Source of the DNA: Candidatus Poribacteria bacterium
GTDB lineage: Bacteria > Poribacteria > WGA-4E > PCPOR2b
Assembly (NCBI GenBank): GCA_965208425.1
Contig: OZ242335.1
Coordinates: 188,544-252,543, forward strand
Direction of reading: 5' to 3'
Length of the DNA: 64,000 nucleotides
Below are positions 2,955 to 50,760 of this stretch, in pieces. The stretch's first letter is position 1, and every line of letters begins with the position of its first letter. Position numbers and translations under genes: made by a program. The notes beneath the pieces are model-generated. The model was given only the letters and a program-made list of their open reading frames with translations. It did not search any database and was not told where the DNA came from.

Positions 2955-3148
2955 ACTATAGTAAATGCTAAAAATAAATAAACACTTTCGCTCCCCGGTA
3001 GGTGCGGTCCGATAAATCGTGACCAGGGTTTCCAACGGCACCGCATAGGCGCAGTTAGAAACAGTGCCTACCAAACCGGAGAACGGTAGTTTCGTTTTCC
3101 TAACCGCACCGGTTTGGCGTGTCCCATTAATTCTAAGGTCCACTATAC
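2955..3148. mobile_element. MITE family 1 copy, full length, inverse orientation
   Basis: ctaaaaataaataaacact ... ggtttggcgtgtcccattaattctaaggtccactata; same element as 815-978. Confidence 0.7.
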
Positions 3149-3248
3149 TTAACGCTTGACACGGTAAAACAGGCATCGGTATAATAACATAAGTTCGCAT
3201 TTTCCACCATCGCCCGTCTGCAAATACAACTTCACAGAGGAAAATATC

Positions 3249-4649
3249 GTGAAAAACCGTTGCTTCTTTAGCCTCGTTGTGGGCTTTACGCTGTTTTTTC
3301 TCCTTTTCGCCTGCAGCAAGGCGCAACTCCATCCCGCTGATCCGACCCACAGCGGTGCCACGTCTGGTGTTCAATTGTTAGCATCAATTGAAAATGCCTT
3401 CGTTAGTATTGCTGAAAGGAGTAATCCCGCCGTTGTTGGTGTCACTGCGTCGAGCGTAGAAAGGCGAACAATTCCCCTTAGAAGGTCCGATCGACAGGAG
3501 GGGACGGGGTTTATTTTTCGCAAAGATGGTTATATTTTAACCAATAATCATGTTGTAAGCGGTGCGAAGCAGATTACGGTTCGCCTATTTGACGGTAGAG
3601 AATTCAAAGATACCCAATTGATTGGGGTTGACCCAAACACGGATGTCGCGGTGTTAAAAATTGATGTGCAGGAAGAACTTCCTGTGCTTCTATTTGGTGA
3701 TTCGGATAGAGTTAAAGTTGGACAGTTTGCAATCGCGATCGGCAACCCATTCCAACTTAATTATACGATGACCACCGGGATTGTCAGTGGAAAGGGACGC
3801 TCACTGTTGCCATCGTTTACGATGCACTATCAAGATTTTATCCAGACTGATGCGTGGATCAACCGGGGAAACAGCGGGGGTCCCTTGCTCAATATACGCG
3901 GAGAAGTCATCGGTATCAACTCTGCGATTCGACGCGCAGATGATGCCCCAACGGCAGACGCAGTCAAAGCGGGTGCCGGTTTCGCAATTCCCATCAATCT
4001 CGTGAAAAAGGTCAGCGACCAGCTCATTGCGAACGGACAGGTGATACGTGGGTGGTTAGGGATTTCTATGGTCCCACATACCGACGGTATTCGGGTAACC
4101 CAATTTCATAGTCCGTCCCCTGCCAGACAGGGTGGTATGGAGGTGGGGGATATCATTGTCGAATACAATATGCAAGAAACGCGAGATGTTCGTAAATTCA
4201 GATTCCTTATTGCCGAGTCAGTGGTTGGTAAGGAAGCATCGTTCACAGTCATTCGCCGCGGCGAGCGCAAAAAACTCTCTATAACGATTGGCAGGATGCC
4301 GTGGCGTTTCACAGGGTTGGCAAGGGAGTCAGATTCGGCATCGTGGACGAAACTGGGCATAGCTGTCCGTGATCTAGCTGCCCACGACTTTGAGCGTTAC
4401 CCCTACTTGAGTCTTGAGGCTGAGGGAGTCATTGTTAAGGATGTACGTCTTGGTGCTCCTGCCCCCAGTGCAAGGGTCGCACTCGGAACATTAATTGTGG
4501 GAATCAACGACCAGCGAATCAAAAACATGGCAGATTACGAAAGAGTGCTGCAAAATGCTCTCAGTAAATCGGAAATCTCTTTTGAAATTAAGAATGCCTA
4601 TACCGACGAAGGAACAGAAACGGTTACGGTTAAATTTAATCAAGAGTGA
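3249..4649 (+). CDS. htrA: HtrA/DegP-family periplasmic serine endoprotease with two PDZ domains; lipoprotein-type signal (LLFAC)
   Basis: Catalytic triad contexts TNNHVV, DVAVLKI and GNSGGPL. GTG start with GAGGA SD. 466 aa. Confidence 0.85.
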   Translation: MKNRCFFSLVVGFTLFFLLFACSKAQLHPADPTHSGATSGVQLLASIENAFVSIAERSNPAVVGVTASSVERRTIPLRRSDRQEGTGFIFRKDGYILTNNHVVSGAKQITVRLFDGREFKDTQLIGVDPNTDVAVLKIDVQEELPVLLFGDSDRVKVGQFAIAIGNPFQLNYTMTTGIVSGKGRSLLPSFTMHYQDFIQTDAWINRGNSGGPLLNIRGEVIGINSAIRRADDAPTADAVKAGAGFAIPINLVKKVSDQLIANGQVIRGWLGISMVPHTDGIRVTQFHSPSPARQGGMEVGDIIVEYNMQETRDVRKFRFLIAESVVGKEASFTVIRRGERKKLSITIGRMPWRFTGLARESDSASWTKLGIAVRDLAAHDFERYPYLSLEAEGVIVKDVRLGAPAPSARVALGTLIVGINDQRIKNMADYERVLQNALSKSEISFEIKNAYTDEGTETVTVKFNQE

Positions 4650-13310: not shown

Positions 13311-13468
13311 TAAAAGTATTGGCTCATGTAAAAAGAGAGTGCAAAGCACGAAGTGAAGGCCCCCTTTGTACCCCCCTTAATCCCCCCGCAAGCAGGGGGA
13401 GAGTAACCCCTGATAAATCGGGATACAAGTGCTTGTGGCTTTGGTTGCACTAATTCTTAACATGAGCG
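13311..13468. mobile_element. MITE family 2 copy, full ~158 bp (gctcatgtaaaaagagagtgcaaagcacgaag ... gcactaattcttaacatgagcg TIRs)
   Basis: Near-identical copy at 18003-18148; short forms at 23372-23462 and 50505-50592; fragment at 34738-34782. Contains ccccccgcaagcaggggga and cctgataaatcggg palindromes. Confidence 0.7.
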
Positions 13469-17877: not shown

Positions 17878-18002
17878 CTCGTTTTATCCAAGTAGATGCT
17901 ATGACTATAGCACATCTCTGCTTGAAAGGCAATCGTGGGTTTTATTTTTACTTGACACTTGTCATCATTTCCCTTAATCTCAAAGAACTTATTTTCTTGG
18001 CT

Positions 18003-18148
18003 CATGTAAAAAGAGAGTGCAAAGCACGAAGTGAAGGCCCCCTTTGTACCCCCCTTAATCCCCCCGCAAGCAGGGGGAGAGTAACCCCTGATAAATCGGG
18101 ATACAAGTGCTTGTGGCTTTGGTTGCACTAATTCTTAACATGAGCGAT
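18003..18148. mobile_element. MITE family 2 copy
   Basis: Near-identical to 13311-13468. Confidence 0.7.
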
Positions 18149-21469: not shown

Positions 21470-22702
21470 TCAAGCGGGCGGTGAATGTCTCTGCGTTTGC
21501 CTGCGTTGTCCCCAGCACCTGACTACGCCTGCACCGAGAAGTAACAGTAGTCCCATCGACCAAAACATCGGTGAGAAATCGAGCCAGCCAATCAGGAATC
21601 CTCCCAAGATAGGACCGACAACCTTGCCAGCATTTTTGAGTGTACCAATCAAGCCCATCCCCGCGCCAATGTGTAGTGCACTAATGTGTGTAGATACGAG
21701 TGCCACTGTGGATGGAAAGATAAGGGCTTGTGCGGCACCAATCAATACCGCCAGCGCCATCAAGCCCAAAATACTGTGCATCAATGTAATCAACGGGAGC
21801 GCAATGCCTGCGAGAACCATTCCCACACATATTGCCCCAAAATATCCCAAGCGATCGCCAATCCATCCTCCAACAGGTTTTAACACCATGTGTACCCCCT
21901 CCTGCATCGAGAAGAAAGCTCCTACCAAGGCAACACTAATCCCTGTAGAAAGAGCATAGATAGGCAAAAATGCTTTGACGGCATAGAGAGCAATAAACAC
22001 GGTTGCTTCTAGCCCACCCGATAGCCAGACAGATGGCGTATGTGTGCCGGACTTTAGGGCATGAACAATCTGCTGACCAATCGGGGGACGGACAGCTTTG
22101 ACGCGTGGCGCAGGTTCTGAGAGTAATAGAATCGGAACAAAAGCGAGGCAGCTAAACAGTCCGATGATGGTAAAAACATTGACAGGACTCATTCCTGTTG
22201 CCAATAGCCAACCCGCAGCCGCTGGTCCGACAATATAGCCCGCGCTGCGAGCCATACCGAACCAGCCCAACTTCTCCGCTAGGCGGTCTTTTACTCCTTC
22301 CGCCACGAAGGCGAGGGTCACGGGACCGTAGATGGCTGTGGCTAAACCGTGGATAATGCGTATGCCAAACAGTTCTGCAGGGGTATGGACAAAACGATAC
22401 AGAAAGGGCATACCAGCAAAAAACACGGTCCCAACAATCAGCCACCAACGCCGTCCCCAGCGATCAGAAAGTATCCCAATCCCTGGTTTGAGAACCATGC
22501 CCGTCAGGGTAGAGACAGAGACAATAAACCCAAGAAACGCATCGGTCGCCCCCAGCGTCATTGCGAAGATCGGCAGGAGCGGTGTCTTTCCCATCTGATA
22601 AGCGGAACGCACAATAAAATCAGCGCCCGTGATACTGATGAAATTGAGCGGGCGCTTCATCACCAGATTTAAGGTAGATGTGTAGAAATTAAGTTGGCGC
22701 AT
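21470..22702 (-). CDS. MFS transporter
   Basis: Twelve hydrophobic segments. MFS motif region GILSDRWGRR. An alternative start at 22660 (MKRPLNF) is possible. Confidence 0.85.
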   Translation of the reverse strand: MRQLNFYTSTLNLVMKRPLNFISITGADFIVRSAYQMGKTPLLPIFAMTLGATDAFLGFIVSVSTLTGMVLKPGIGILSDRWGRRWWLIVGTVFFAGMPFLYRFVHTPAELFGIRIIHGLATAIYGPVTLAFVAEGVKDRLAEKLGWFGMARSAGYIVGPAAAGWLLATGMSPVNVFTIIGLFSCLAFVPILLLSEPAPRVKAVRPPIGQQIVHALKSGTHTPSVWLSGGLEATVFIALYAVKAFLPIYALSTGISVALVGAFFSMQEGVHMVLKPVGGWIGDRLGYFGAICVGMVLAGIALPLITLMHSILGLMALAVLIGAAQALIFPSTVALVSTHISALHIGAGMGLIGTLKNAGKVVGPILGGFLIGWLDFSPMFWSMGLLLLLGAGVVRCWGQRRQTQRHSPPA

Positions 22703-22728: not shown

Positions 22729-23046
22729 TTAATCAGTCAGATGAGAAACGGGAGGCAGATACTGACAGGTTGGAATAGTTTTAAGTTTCTCCTCCAGAGC
22801 ATCCTTTGCAACTTCAAGGTTATAATGCGCTTGCAGGTTGGACCACAGAGAATCGGAAACCCCAAAGTAGCGAGAAAGAAGTAATGCTGTCTCTGCAGAT
22901 ATACGCCGCTGTTCTTTGATAATCACTGTAATTCGATTCACCGGCACACCAATATCCTTTGCTAACCGGTAGGGAGTAATTCTCATCGGCTTTAGAAAAT
23001 CTTCTCTTAGGATTTCACCCGGATGAGTTGGTTGAATAACAGACAT
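22729..23046 (-). CDS. higA: HigA-family antitoxin (XRE-type HTH)
   Basis: HPGEILREDFLKPM...YRLAKDIGVPVNRITVIIKEQRRISAETALLLSRYFGVS..WSNLQ..YNL matches the HigA (COG3093) pattern. AGGAG SD. Confidence 0.8.
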   Translation of the reverse strand: MSVIQPTHPGEILREDFLKPMRITPYRLAKDIGVPVNRITVIIKEQRRISAETALLLSRYFGVSDSLWSNLQAHYNLEVAKDALEEKLKTIPTCQYLPPVSHLTD

Positions 23047-23063
23047 TTTTCGCTCCTTGGGGA

Positions 23064-23150
23064 TTAGTGATAATCAACAATTTCTACGTTGTAGGCATTG
23101 CCATTCCTGAACTCAAAGCAGACACGCCATTGACGATTAATACGGATACT
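23064..23150 (-). pseudogene. higB: HigB-family toxin remnant (C-terminal ~28 codons only)
   Basis: My minus-strand translation gives ...YSIRINRQWRVCFEFRNGNAYNVEIVDYH*. This matches the C-terminus of Proteus-type HigB (..ANWRITFQFINGDAYILNYEDYH). An in-frame TAG sits immediately upstream, and nothing HigB-like lies further upstream. Confidence 0.5.
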
Positions 23151-23371
23151 ATACTAGTCTTGCCTATCACCTCTCAATTTCTCAAGCCGATTAGCAGGTG
23201 GTACACTTAGGTCCGCTAACTGATTTGCCGCATGCAGATAATTCAGTTTTCTTAGTGCCACGGAAGCTAAATTCCGCCATTCGGGCGCAACTCTGCTGCG
23301 ATTAAAGAGGTGCTTCGTTAAATGTCCGCTAGTAAAGATGCATTAATCTTGATATTTTTTAGGTGGCTCAT

Positions 23372-23462
23372 GTAAAAGGAAAGTGCAAAGCACGAAGAGA
23401 AACCGAGTTTTGCCGAAAAAACTCGGTTTCTTTGCACTAAATCTTAACATGAGCGTTTTAGG
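23372..23462. mobile_element. MITE family 2, short form (~90 bp)
   Basis: ctcatgtaaaaggaaagtgcaaagcacgaagagaaaccgagttttgccgaaaaaactcggtttctttgcactaaatcttaacatgagcg. Confidence 0.6.
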
Positions 23463-26400
23463 TTACAACGGCTGGCACATTGGCTTCACTGATGAGGTTG
23501 TTAAAAGCAGCGACATCTTCCTCAATCACTGACTTGAGTTGATCCAATTGGGCATCGATCTGGCTTGACAACTCTTCAAAGAGCTCATACGCCTGTTTCG
23601 GCGGGGCGAAGTCAGCAACTGCCACGACGCTAGTCAATCCGGCGAGCTTACCGATTAACATGGTAGGCAGCCGAAGTCGATCGCCGATGGTATCCGCTCC
23701 GGTCTGTATCAACTCCCCTTCGATGGCTTTCAGTTTTTCCTGTAAGGCTTCAGCAGCTTCACAGATTGCTTCGGCGTTGGTATCCTCCCCCGCATCTGCG
23801 CGTTTCTTCCACTCATTCGCCTGTCGCTGTATTCGGCGGAGGCGATTAATCGCTTCGTGTGTTTCTGACAGCTTATCACGAATCTGACTCCACAACTCAA
23901 ACTGAGCATCGAAATCTGCTTGACTAGCCGTCACTCGTGGATCTTTGCAAATCTCAAACGTCTGCGTCTGCGCTTGCGCACCAACCTTGAGTTGTGTCTG
24001 ATAGGTTCCCGGTGAGGCGAGCGGTCCATTATTCGGCTTATCTGGTGGCGCCTCCTGTTTGCCACTTGGTGGTTCCGTCACCGCTTCCGAGTCTGGATAG
24101 GACATATCCCACACAAAGCGATTCAATCCCGGTTCCGCGGGAATATAGCGATCGTCCTTATTGTCTGAGTCTGCTTCATCATCTTCAGCGTCTTCAGGTT
24201 TAGTAGTGAATGTTTTGATTTCTGCTCCGTCGGCGTCGAGGAACGTAAGTTCGACGGAATCAGCGGAGGTGTCTTCCAACAAGTAGTAGACAATCACCCC
24301 CTGCGGTGGTCCTTCTCCGGCATCGAGGAATCTGCGGGTGCGTTCCCCTTCAGGCGATTTTTCCAGATAGAAGGTTGCAGCGGCACCTAACCCCATCAGA
24401 TAGTTCTTTCCTGTTTCGCTGCGGAACATACCCGCGCCCCATTGCAACCATCGACGATAGGTAGCGCGAGGCTCGAACAGGTGGGGTGAAGCCTGCGCTG
24501 CCTCTGCTGACATGTGGCGTAGCGGCGTTACATCGTCCAAAATCCAGAAAGATCTGCCGTGAGTGCCAGCGACCAGATCCCCGTCCTTGATCTTTAGGTC
24601 GTAGACAGGGACGACCGGGAGATTGTTTTGTAAACGGTACCAATTCGCTCCATCGTCCAACGAGACATAGATTCCGGTTTCGGTGCCGACATAGAGGAGA
24701 CCGGACCGAACCGGATCTTCTCGAATCACACGGGTAATCTCGCCTTCAGGGAAACTCCCACTAATTATATGCCACGTCTGCCCATAATCGTCTGTCTTAT
24801 ACAGATAGGGTTGATAATCATCCAGCTTGTATCGGGTGACTGCCACATACGCTGTCGCCGGGTCGTGTGGCGAGGTTTCGATATTGCTGATTAATGACCA
24901 CTCAAGCAGGTCCGGCGGAGTGATATTTTCCCAACTTTGTCCCTCATCTCTAGAGATGTGAATCAAGCCATCATCGCTGCCAGCCCAAAAGACACCGGAT
25001 TCGTGTGACGATTCAACAAAGGCGTACACCGTCCCGTAATGCTCCGCACCGCTGGCATCTTTTGTGATGGGACCGCCTGATGGTCCAAGTTTGGTTACAT
25101 CATTACGGGTCAAATCTGGACTGATTGGTTCCCAACTGCTGCCTTCGTCCGTCGAGCGGAAGATTATATTTCCCGCTACATACAGGACGCCCGGATTGTG
25201 GGGTGAGAACGCAATAGGAAACGTCCAAGAGAAGCGATACTTAAGATCTTTTGGTCCTAAGCCGATATACTCTTCGGGCCAAACGTTGACCAAGCGGATC
25301 TGACGGGTGTGATGGTCGTAGCGTTGGAGCACCCCACTACCGCCCGGCGAGCTACCTATCGCACCGATGTAGGCGATATCGGGATTTTCGGGGTGAACCA
25401 CAATGTCACCACTTTCGCCGGTGCCAACCGGGTAACAGTCAACCCAGTGGATACCGCCATATTCACTCGCGCTTGGGGCACAGATACTGGAGTTATCCTG
25501 TTGTGTAGCGTAGACACGGTAGGGGAACCGGTTGTCGGTGTCAATGCGGTAGAACTGCGAGGTAAGTTGGTTGTAGATGGTTGTCCAGCTATCACCCCCG
25601 TTGAACGAGACACATGCACCGCCGTCGTTGCCTTCAATCATGCGTCGGGGGTTGTTCGAATCGATCCACAGATCGTGATTATCCCCGTGCGGCGTGGTGA
25701 TCTCCGTAAAGGTATGCCCTCCGTCGGTTGACTTCCACATCTTGAGATTCAGGACATATACGGTATCTGGATCTTGTGGGTCGGCGAAGATATGACAGTA
25801 GTAAAAGGGGCGATGCCACAGATCGCGGTTATCTGTCAACAGTTCCCACGTTTCCCCGCCATCGTCTGAACGGTGCAGCCCGCCCTTCTCCGCTTCGACG
25901 ATTGCCCAGACCCGATCGGATTGGGCAGGAGAGGAAGCGACACCAATCTTACCAATAAGCCCCTTGGGAAGGCCGGGTTTATTCGTGAGTTCCTCCCAAG
26001 TATCGCCGCCGTCTGTTGATTTGTAAAGGCTGCTATCGGGTCCACCGCTCGACAGTTCCCAAAAGTTGCGATAGGTTTCCCATATCGTTGCGTAGAGAAT
26101 GCGGGGGTTATGCGGATCCATTGCAAGGTCAACAGCACCCGCTTTTTCGCTGCGAAACAGGATATTTTCCCAAGTTGTCCCACCATCTTTGGAGCGAAAG
26201 ACACCGCGTTCTTCGTTTGGTCCAAAGGCATGCCCCAAGGCTGCCACATAGACTAGATCGGGGTTCTGCGGATGAATGCGAATTTTGCCGATATGACGGG
26301 TTTCCTTCAATCCGACATTTTCCCAAGCTTTACCGCCATCGGTGGACTTGTACACCCCATCGCCGTAGGAGACATCGAGGCGAATTGTAGTTTCGCCGGT

Positions 26401-26664
26401 GCCTGCGTAGATAACATTTGGATCTGCATCTGCCACCGCGATAGCGCCTACCGCAGCACTATTGAAGAACTCGTCTGTGATGTTTTCCCAGTATGTTCCT
26501 GCGTCGTCAGTCTTCCAGACACCGCCAGCACACGCGCCGAAGTAAAAGACTGCCGGCTCTGTGGGATGTCCCGCTACCGCAACAACACGCCCACCCCGTG
26601 GTGGACCGATACAACGCCATTTGAGTGATTGAAATAAATTTGAATCTGATTGAGAATTGCTCAT
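23458..26664 (-). CDS. BNR/Asp-box (Sortilin/VPS10-like) repeat glycosyl-hydrolase-like protein
   Basis: Multiple S-x-D-G-G-x-T-W Asp-box repeats (STDGGKAW, SKDGGTTW, STDGGDTW, SDDGGETW, STDGGHTF...). I re-called the start at ATG 26664 (MSNSQSDSNLF...). The track ORF reads on into MITE1. Confidence 0.75.
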   Translation of the reverse strand: MSNSQSDSNLFQSLKWRCIGPPRGGRVVAVAGHPTEPAVFYFGACAGGVWKTDDAGTYWENITDEFFNSAAVGAIAVADADPNVIYAGTGETTIRLDVSYGDGVYKSTDGGKAWENVGLKETRHIGKIRIHPQNPDLVYVAALGHAFGPNEERGVFRSKDGGTTWENILFRSEKAGAVDLAMDPHNPRILYATIWETYRNFWELSSGGPDSSLYKSTDGGDTWEELTNKPGLPKGLIGKIGVASSPAQSDRVWAIVEAEKGGLHRSDDGGETWELLTDNRDLWHRPFYYCHIFADPQDPDTVYVLNLKMWKSTDGGHTFTEITTPHGDNHDLWIDSNNPRRMIEGNDGGACVSFNGGDSWTTIYNQLTSQFYRIDTDNRFPYRVYATQQDNSSICAPSASEYGGIHWVDCYPVGTGESGDIVVHPENPDIAYIGAIGSSPGGSGVLQRYDHHTRQIRLVNVWPEEYIGLGPKDLKYRFSWTFPIAFSPHNPGVLYVAGNIIFRSTDEGSSWEPISPDLTRNDVTKLGPSGGPITKDASGAEHYGTVYAFVESSHESGVFWAGSDDGLIHISRDEGQSWENITPPDLLEWSLISNIETSPHDPATAYVAVTRYKLDDYQPYLYKTDDYGQTWHIISGSFPEGEITRVIREDPVRSGLLYVGTETGIYVSLDDGANWYRLQNNLPVVPVYDLKIKDGDLVAGTHGRSFWILDDVTPLRHMSAEAAQASPHLFEPRATYRRWLQWGAGMFRSETGKNYLMGLGAAATFYLEKSPEGERTRRFLDAGEGPPQGVIVYYLLEDTSADSVELTFLDADGAEIKTFTTKPEDAEDDEADSDNKDDRYIPAEPGLNRFVWDMSYPDSEAVTEPPSGKQEAPPDKPNNGPLASPGTYQTQLKVGAQAQTQTFEICKDPRVTASQADFDAQFELWSQIRDKLSETHEAINRLRRIQRQANEWKKRADAGEDTNAEAICEAAEALQEKLKAIEGELIQTGADTIGDRLRLPTMLIGKLAGLTSVVAVADFAPPKQAYELFEELSSQIDAQLDQLKSVIEEDVAAFNNLISEANVPAVVT

Positions 26665-26734
26665 GCTCTGTTTTCCTTTATTGTTGGGTATGAGATTTTG
26701 TGGCGAACGCAGATCTGCGTTCCCTACTGTAGTG

Positions 26735-26822
26735 GATTTTAGAATTAATGAGACACTGCCAATCGGTGAGGTTGGAAACCTCACCTACCGGGGAGCGCAA
26801 GTGTCTATTTATTTTGAGCCTC
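26735..26822. mobile_element. MITE family 1, short form
   Basis: ttttagaattaatgagacactgccaatcggtgaggttggaaacctcacctaccggggagcgcaagtgtctatttatttt. Confidence 0.6.
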
Positions 26823-50382: not shown

Positions 50383-50760
50383 AACGTGCGTGAACTGGAA
50401 AACGCGATTGAACGCGCCGTTCTGCTTGAGACCACAGAACAGTTACAACCAGGTAACCTGCCTCGAAAGATTCTGTCAACGGTCTCTTCCAAACCTATCT
50501 TCTTTCGCTCATGTTAAGATTTAGTGCAAAGAAACCGAGTTTTTTCGGCAAAACTCGGTTTCTCTTCGTGCTTTGCACTTTCTTTTTATATGAGCCTCTT
50601 CTTTTTCCGTGACCCAACAGAAATCCCGCTGTTTCAAGAGGTGGAACGTCAAACGTTGGCTCACGCGCTCAAGGTGATGGACAATAATATCACAAACAAA
50701 GGCCGCCCAAGCCTTGAACATTGACCGATCAACTCTTTATCGGAAATTGAAGTTGTATCA
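50383..50760 (+). pseudogene. remnant of a sigma-54-dependent (NtrC-family) activator C-terminus, split by a MITE2 insertion and frameshifted
   Basis: My translation gives YDFPGNVRELENAIERAVLLE... before the MITE. After it, in another frame, ...AAQALNIDRSTLYRKLKLYQL (Fis-type HTH). No AAA+ domain is present upstream. Confidence 0.5.
50505..50592. mobile_element. MITE family 2, short form, inserted into the NtrC-like remnant
   Basis: cgctcatgttaagatttagtgcaaagaaaccgagttttttcggcaaaactcggtttctcttcgtgctttgcactttctttttatatgagc. Confidence 0.6.

Follow-up and report, generated by a model that had tools for sequence, protein, structure and literature searches.

The systems closest to the locus analysed here are HigBA of P. 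aeruginosa and GraTA of P. putida, both from the branch of HigB/HigA pairs in which the toxin gene comes first. A more distant relative is the HigBA pair of Proteus vulgaris Rts1, which shares with our system the PF05015 family of the RelE/ParE superfamily, the C-terminal D-Y-H end and the overall length of the toxin. When the proteins are aligned, this D-Y-H end appears in both Proteus HigB and GraT, and its residues are described as catalytic in the literature on Proteus HigB.

Some antitoxins of this type have been reported in other contexts. In P. aeruginosa, mvfR is repressed by HigA, which also binds to the promoter of pelA (PMC6987408). A role in anti-addiction has been proposed for orphan antitoxins (PMC7354431); the same review traces most of the orphans of Klebsiella back to canonical systems that became degraded, and HigA-type orphans are among the most abundant ones in marine MAGs (PMC12654330). 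The locus presented here resembles the orphans of Klebsiella and of marine MAGs in having an intact antitoxin beside a degraded toxin, but differs from them in that the ancestral intact state, the precise lesions and a number of independent, parallel losses at this one syntenic position can all be reconstructed.

The locus was found in a stretch of 64 kb from a member of Candidatus Poribacteria, a group of sponge symbionts, and this whole stretch of DNA is referred to below as the window. Most probably, it represents a chromosomal type II higBA (GraTA-like) module at an early point of a toxin-first decay, with higA now left as a drifting remnant. A previous sequence-only reading of this DNA had already proposed a toxin-antitoxin pair with a dead toxin and an intact antitoxin, which agrees with our comparison: the pair is a type II higBA whose toxin gene carries a 5′ deletion and a nonsense codon (Q64*). 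Alignments with the intact orthologous loci of other Poribacteria reveal three changes in the window, which are a deletion of 118-126 bp, the Q64* change and the insertion of a MITE.

The gene order shared by the window and the intact contigs is Sortilin/BNR, higB, higA, MFS and CopD-like, all on one strand. The upstream neighbour in the window is a gene for a Sortilin/BNR-repeat protein (23458..26784, minus strand), a 1108-codon ORF recognised from the ORF list, the Pfam families of its orthologues and synteny, and the downstream one is an MFS transporter gene (21470..22702, minus strand; ORF list, and PF07690 on the orthologues). This MFS gene follows higA in all the syntenic loci, starting 26-65 nt past the higA stop. 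The relatives found through a genome scan with HigA were all Candidatus Poribacteria. A cyanobacterial origin of the window, considered at first, was rejected on the basis of HIP1 counts. Within the 64-kb window, tblastn detected neither a second higBA pair nor another HigB, and a non-syntenic higBA pair found in Poribacteria encodes a HigB and a HigA that are 77% and 79% identical, respectively.

The antitoxin gene higA (22729..23046, minus strand) is whole in the ORF list, with 105 codons and a TAA stop. Its Shine-Dalgarno AAGGAG (23053..23058, minus strand), recognised by inspection of the sequence, lies within the 17-nt spacer between higB and higA, at a distance of 6 nt upstream of the ATG, and the alignments show it kept in all intact relatives, so that the earlier description of an intact higA with its own Shine-Dalgarno stands. 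Against TIGR02607, the NCBIfam equivalog model of HigA, the protein scores 91.7 bits with a cutoff of 47.7, the match spanning residues 5-82 of the protein and positions 3-80 of the 81 in the model, and against Pfam HTH_3 it scores 28.4 bits (cutoff 23). As expected for the toxin-first order, it lies directly downstream of a HigB-family toxin gene: a gap of 17 nt separates the end of the higB remnant from higA, and in six related loci the same position is taken by an intact higB. The HigA proteins of the syntenic Poribacteria loci are 88-93% identical to that of the window, and the nearest solved structures are those of P. aeruginosa HigA (6jpi/7csv), together with GraA of P. putida (6f8s_A/6f8h_A); the HigA of P. 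vulgaris gives a weak match (E about 2e-4). Just two replacements, G22R and A41V, are unique to the window copy. We considered G22R as a damaging change and rejected it, for the solved homologues have D, K or G at this position and the Poribacteria paralogue has K. Judged by its sequence, this copy of HigA bears no sign of damage yet.

The remains of the toxin gene are much larger than first thought. From the sequence alone, the last ~28 codons of higB had been taken as the only survivors, whereas 84 of the 93 codons are still present in one frame (23067-23318), and residues 10-93 of an intact relative align by tblastn to positions 23318..23067 with 95% identity. The pseudogene (23064..23318, minus strand; tblastn, PF05015) thus comprises codons 10-93 and the original TAA stop in a single frame, interrupted by one internal TAG. 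The C-terminal piece, YSIRINRQWRVCFEFRNGNAYNVEIVDYH, is made of 29 residues (23067-23153) followed by the stop at 23064-23066 (minus strand), and even alone it matches the Pfam HigB-like_toxin family (PF05015) at 28.1 bits against a cutoff of 27, over profile positions 64-91 of 91. A failure of this fragment to match HigB profiles would have spoken against its identity as HigB, but the match was found. The in-frame stop described before this stub is real (TAG at 23154-23156), but the sequence ahead of it, which had been called unrelated, is not: the frame upstream of the TAG (23157-23342) by itself matches positions 24-60 of the HigB profile (E 1.6e-5), and when higB is read through the TAG the PF05015 match rises to 64.8 bits over profile positions 24-91. 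Sequence other than higB begins only upstream of about 23319. A search of a protein collection with the read-through translation gave intact 93-residue HigB relatives at 90-96% identity. The label of a Proteus-type HigB was right as to the Pfam HigB family and loose as to the subtype, since the toxin of the intact Poribacteria relatives matches GraT (6f8s_B), its nearest solved counterpart, over its full length at 84 bits and the distant Proteus HigB at 37.

The premature TAG (23154..23156, minus strand; codon table and alignments) occupies the place of a conserved Gln64 codon. In all nine of the nine aligned relatives this residue is Gln, encoded by CAG in their DNA, and therefore a single C-to-T change (CAG to TAG) accounts for the stop. 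It removes the C-terminal 29 residues of the RNase HigB, including the D-Y-H end. Since TAG is the usual stop codon of higB in several of the relatives, we take it as a stop here as well, and read-through is not expected. The ORF list shows no ORF of 20 or more amino acids in the frame of the C-terminal stub. In the upstream piece there is a single ORF, of 35 codons with a GTG start (23154-23261, minus strand), which corresponds to HigB residues 29-63, lacks the C-terminal part and has no evident ribosome-binding site. An intact HigB ORF in another frame would have contradicted the loss of the toxin, and none exists in any frame; neither is there a complete translatable ORF of ~93 codons with a start and the C-terminal D-Y-H. 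With the start and codons 1-9 deleted and a TAG at codon 64, higB is a pseudogene and not a member of the functional toxins. Compared with the intact higB of L003, the remnant shows 6 substitutions in 252 nt, and besides Q64* it has no amino-acid change of its own. As the remnant is almost unchanged, its inactivation must be recent.

The second lesion of the toxin gene is the 5′ deletion, whose size (118-126 bp) varies with the reference locus and which lies between 9-bp direct repeats. Intact loci contain two copies of the repeat, AAAGAAGCA ... AACGAAGCG, flanking the stretch that is missing in the window, and pairwise alignment to L002 and the other intact loci places the junction at one hybrid copy, AACGAAGCA (23311..23319, minus strand). 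What has disappeared with this stretch is the higBA promoter, the candidate operator, the higB start and codons 1-9. In the intact loci, it holds a conserved extended -10 (TGGTATAAT) and, overlapping it, a conserved 10-5-10 inverted repeat, CATAGTTATG-N5-CATAACTATG, which from its sequence is a plausible candidate for the HigA operator. Neither the extended -10 nor the inverted repeat occurs anywhere in the 64-kb window, and no surviving operator or half-site was found there above chance. Intact Poribacteria relatives are alike to GraTA and P. aeruginosa HigBA in having the toxin upstream of the antitoxin, a 17-nt spacer and palindromes overlapping the promoter, but the palindrome of the P. 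aeruginosa HigA, TTAAC-GTTAA (PMC6987408), is unrelated to the candidate operator CATAGTTATG-N5-CATAACTATG. The window differs from both systems in that its toxin is a pseudogene and its promoter and operator are gone. A functional type II toxin-antitoxin system has both partners intact and an autoregulated promoter; the window has an inactivated toxin and lacks both the promoter and the palindromes.

Past the junction, positions 23320..23356 (minus strand) are a remnant of the spacer that follows the Sortilin/BNR gene, and they align just past the BNR stop of L002, L005 and L028. The stretch that the sequence-only reading would have translated as '...IFTSGHL' (23320-23342) lies here; it aligns with the conserved post-BNR spacer of the intact loci and is not higB coding sequence. 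In L013, where higB is intact, the sequence between BNR and the higB promoter (about 2555-2645) is unlike that of the other intact loci. A promoter-like site within higB, TTGAGA-18-TATAGT (23177..23148), was examined as the driver of higA and dismissed, because such a site is no commoner than in shuffled sequence. It is not kept in most of the relatives without higB. An Rfam scan of the region gave no meaningful match. With the native promoter deleted, transcription of higA in the window would depend on transcripts of the Sortilin/BNR gene that run on through the hairpin of the MITE, or else on a weak site in the higB remnant.

This MITE (23365..23455, minus strand) is a 91-bp element with terminal inverted repeats GCTCATGT / ACATGAGC. 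Its 8-bp target-site duplication, ACCTAAAA, is found on one side at 23357-23364 and on the other at 23456-23463, where the copy includes the stop codon of the BNR gene. A short MITE some 220 bp further on had been noticed earlier, and its inverted repeats, duplications and distance (about 210-220 bp) bear that out. Its hairpin is predicted at about -39 kcal/mol. The insertion site is empty in L001, L002, L005 and L028, and the element is absent in all the related loci. A second copy (50506-50596, plus strand) is 97.8% identical to the first, and two relatives of 148 bp with the same termini occur at 13321-13468 and 17999-18146, both on the minus strand; these two are nearly identical to each other, and their G-rich interior is unlike that of the 91-bp copies. 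All four copies in the window show 8-bp duplications. The element has, in short, the marks of a MITE: it is short and non-coding, it has inverted repeats and duplications, it is multicopy, and its site is empty in the relatives. The family counts four copies in 64 kb, whereas none was found in the loci of related Poribacteria, which add up to about 176 kb.

It could be argued that the stop and the deletion arose as errors in sequencing or assembly, and that higBA is intact in the true genome. A probe for exact matches to the deletion junction, meant to order both lesions, found none in the metagenome collection, and the source genome is apparently not among the species representatives, which leaves no independent copy for comparison; both facts would fit such errors. 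However, there are two unrelated lesions within one gene, a deletion between direct repeats is a standard biological mechanism, and the adjacent MITE has proper target-site duplications. Moreover, relatives from three separate samples show a different inactivating lesion in higB, which points to a recurrent and real process. We therefore regard an artefact as very improbable.

How often higB has been lost was assessed in a survey of 19 related loci, nearly all of them demonstrably syntenic and seeded mostly on HigA, a design for which loci without both genes, or with higB alone, are invisible. The metagenome scan seeded with HigA gave only more distant, non-syntenic modules. In six loci higB is intact (L001, L002, L003, L005, L013 and L015). 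Another 12 of the 19 have a dead higB or none, and no fewer than six independent events or alleles account for this. Besides the 5′ deletion with Q64* of the window, these routes include a 1-nt deletion in codon 23 (W23) in L028-L030, which come from three separate samples; a different 5′ deletion in L012; a near-total deletion in L007 that leaves an 18-bp scrap; a filler allele of roughly 150-200 bp in L008, L009 and L011; and a replacement by an unrelated 288-codon gene in L004, L006, L010, L014 and L016. L031 (2580-2852) and L032 (1763-2035) carry a further higB allele with an in-frame loss of three codons (IRI) in the conserved YS-IRI-NRQW strand. These two genes are annotated as intact, and by their sequence they possibly encode an attenuated or dead toxin.

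The 288-codon gene (2104-2970 in both L004 and L010; also in L006, L014 and L016) has a signal-peptide/lipoprotein-like N-terminus and no NCBIfam match, and it fills the exact position of higB, ending 30 nt before higA. In identity profiles, the replacement alleles of different genomes are 97-100% identical, although the flanks of these genomes reach only 80-90%, and L009 is 99-100% identical to the intact L002 outside the locus. From these two observations it follows that the alleles move by recombination and that all the losses are young. The 288-codon gene itself looks, from the same profiles, like a recently recombining cassette.

The locus of L028, L029 and L030 (one TARA sample and two Logan runs) shows this decay at an older stage. 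Its higB (about 3001-3216) has several replacements in addition to the 1-nt deletion at W23, and in its higA (3234-3551) the HTH core has the replacements G22E and R59Y. Among the distant, non-syntenic higBA modules of JGI metagenomes, L018 (1441-1650) and L020 (1780-2000) have a hairpin-rich spacer of ~210 bp between higB and higA in place of the usual 17 nt. L020 has a truncated higB, and in L019 and L021 only higA is present.

A gene that survives its partner so often may owe this to selection, and the sequence-only reading had suggested that the retained HigA could regulate or cross-neutralise. Under this alternative, the orphan HigA would be selected for anti-addiction or immunity against paralogous or incoming HigB toxins, or else for repressing other genes as an HTH protein that acts on its own. 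It would explain that higA is whole in 10 of the 12 loci with a dead higB, and the repeated, independent removal of higB alone fits selection against the toxin with the antitoxin kept. The non-syntenic Poribacteria pair (HigB 77%, HigA 79%) makes cross-recognition plausible, and there are precedents for regulation (PMC6987408) and for anti-addiction (PMC7354431). However, as all the losses are young, a whole higA needs no selection, and two of the orphans are already broken: disruptions of higA are confined to loci with a dead higB, namely L014, which has a frameshift at codon 9, and L016, which has internal deletions. In the window, moreover, higA is left without its native promoter and without the one operator that could be recognised, no operator-like site is seen within the 64 kb, and there is no second HigB to be neutralised.

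Evidence on this point also comes from the substitutions in higA itself. We counted lineage-specific (singleton) substitutions in codons 1-94 of higA, with the MFS neighbour as a control. The synonymous to nonsynonymous counts in higA are 8:2 in the loci with an intact higB and 13:17 in those where it is dead, a marginal difference on small counts (Fisher p=0.07) in which recombination also blurs the branches. In the MFS gene, the same counts are 51:21 and 79:40 (Fisher p=0.63). Within the genomes with a dead higB, higA (13:17) differs from MFS (79:40) with a Fisher p=0.034. The replacements in higA also differ in their position: the two of the intact loci are confined to the variable tail, whereas those of the dead loci are mostly in the HTH core, so that replacements in this core pile up only after the loss of higB. 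Taken as a comparison of sequences, the pattern suggests relaxed constraint rather than domestication of higA where higB is dead, and thus the comparative data lean to relaxed constraint after the loss of the toxin instead of the regulating or cross-neutralising role suggested before. In favour of a selected HigA, the nonsynonymous to synonymous ratio of higA in these loci is still under the neutral expectation (binomial p=0.018). This would be expected if the terminal branches span both a period preceding the loss and one following it, and a residual function of the protein is another possible source of the same ratio. The pairwise pN/pS of higA among loci without higB (0.09 at a pS of 0.32) was considered as a sign of long-term purifying selection and rejected: the losses being young, pairwise values mostly sample the history before them. 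On balance, we consider it unlikely that the orphan HigA is maintained by selection.

A toxin-first decay, our preferred explanation, would proceed as follows. As long as HigB was active, the loss of HigA would have been harmful through poisoning of the cell, and decay would have had to start with the toxin. Once the toxin was gone, there would be no need for neutralisation or autoregulation, and higA would become dispensable and drift under relaxed constraint. Eventually higA would decay too, as it has already done in two related genomes.

A bolder version of the selective scenario, to which we give a slimmer chance, is that the locus is a hotspot of repeated selective removal of HigB, with some alleles spreading between species by recombination and with HigA kept either as a regulator or as a factor of its own for immunity (anti-addiction) to mobile elements that carry HigB. 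If this were true, the window would be a snapshot of an adaptive and recurrent purge of the toxin rather than of neutral decay. The recurrent and independent inactivation of a toxin at one syntenic locus of Poribacteria would be notable only if shown to be adaptive.

For the annotation of the window, we recommend a higB pseudogene followed by higA, instead of either a 28-codon fragment or a functional toxin-antitoxin system. Degraded toxin-antitoxin pairs with a surviving antitoxin are common and well described, and a single case matters little. Returning to toxin-first decay, the value of the present locus is modest, and lies in being a clean and datable case in which the intact ancestor, the exact lesions and the parallel losses can all be reconstructed, and which offers a first hint that the constraint on an antitoxin may relax once its toxin is gone.
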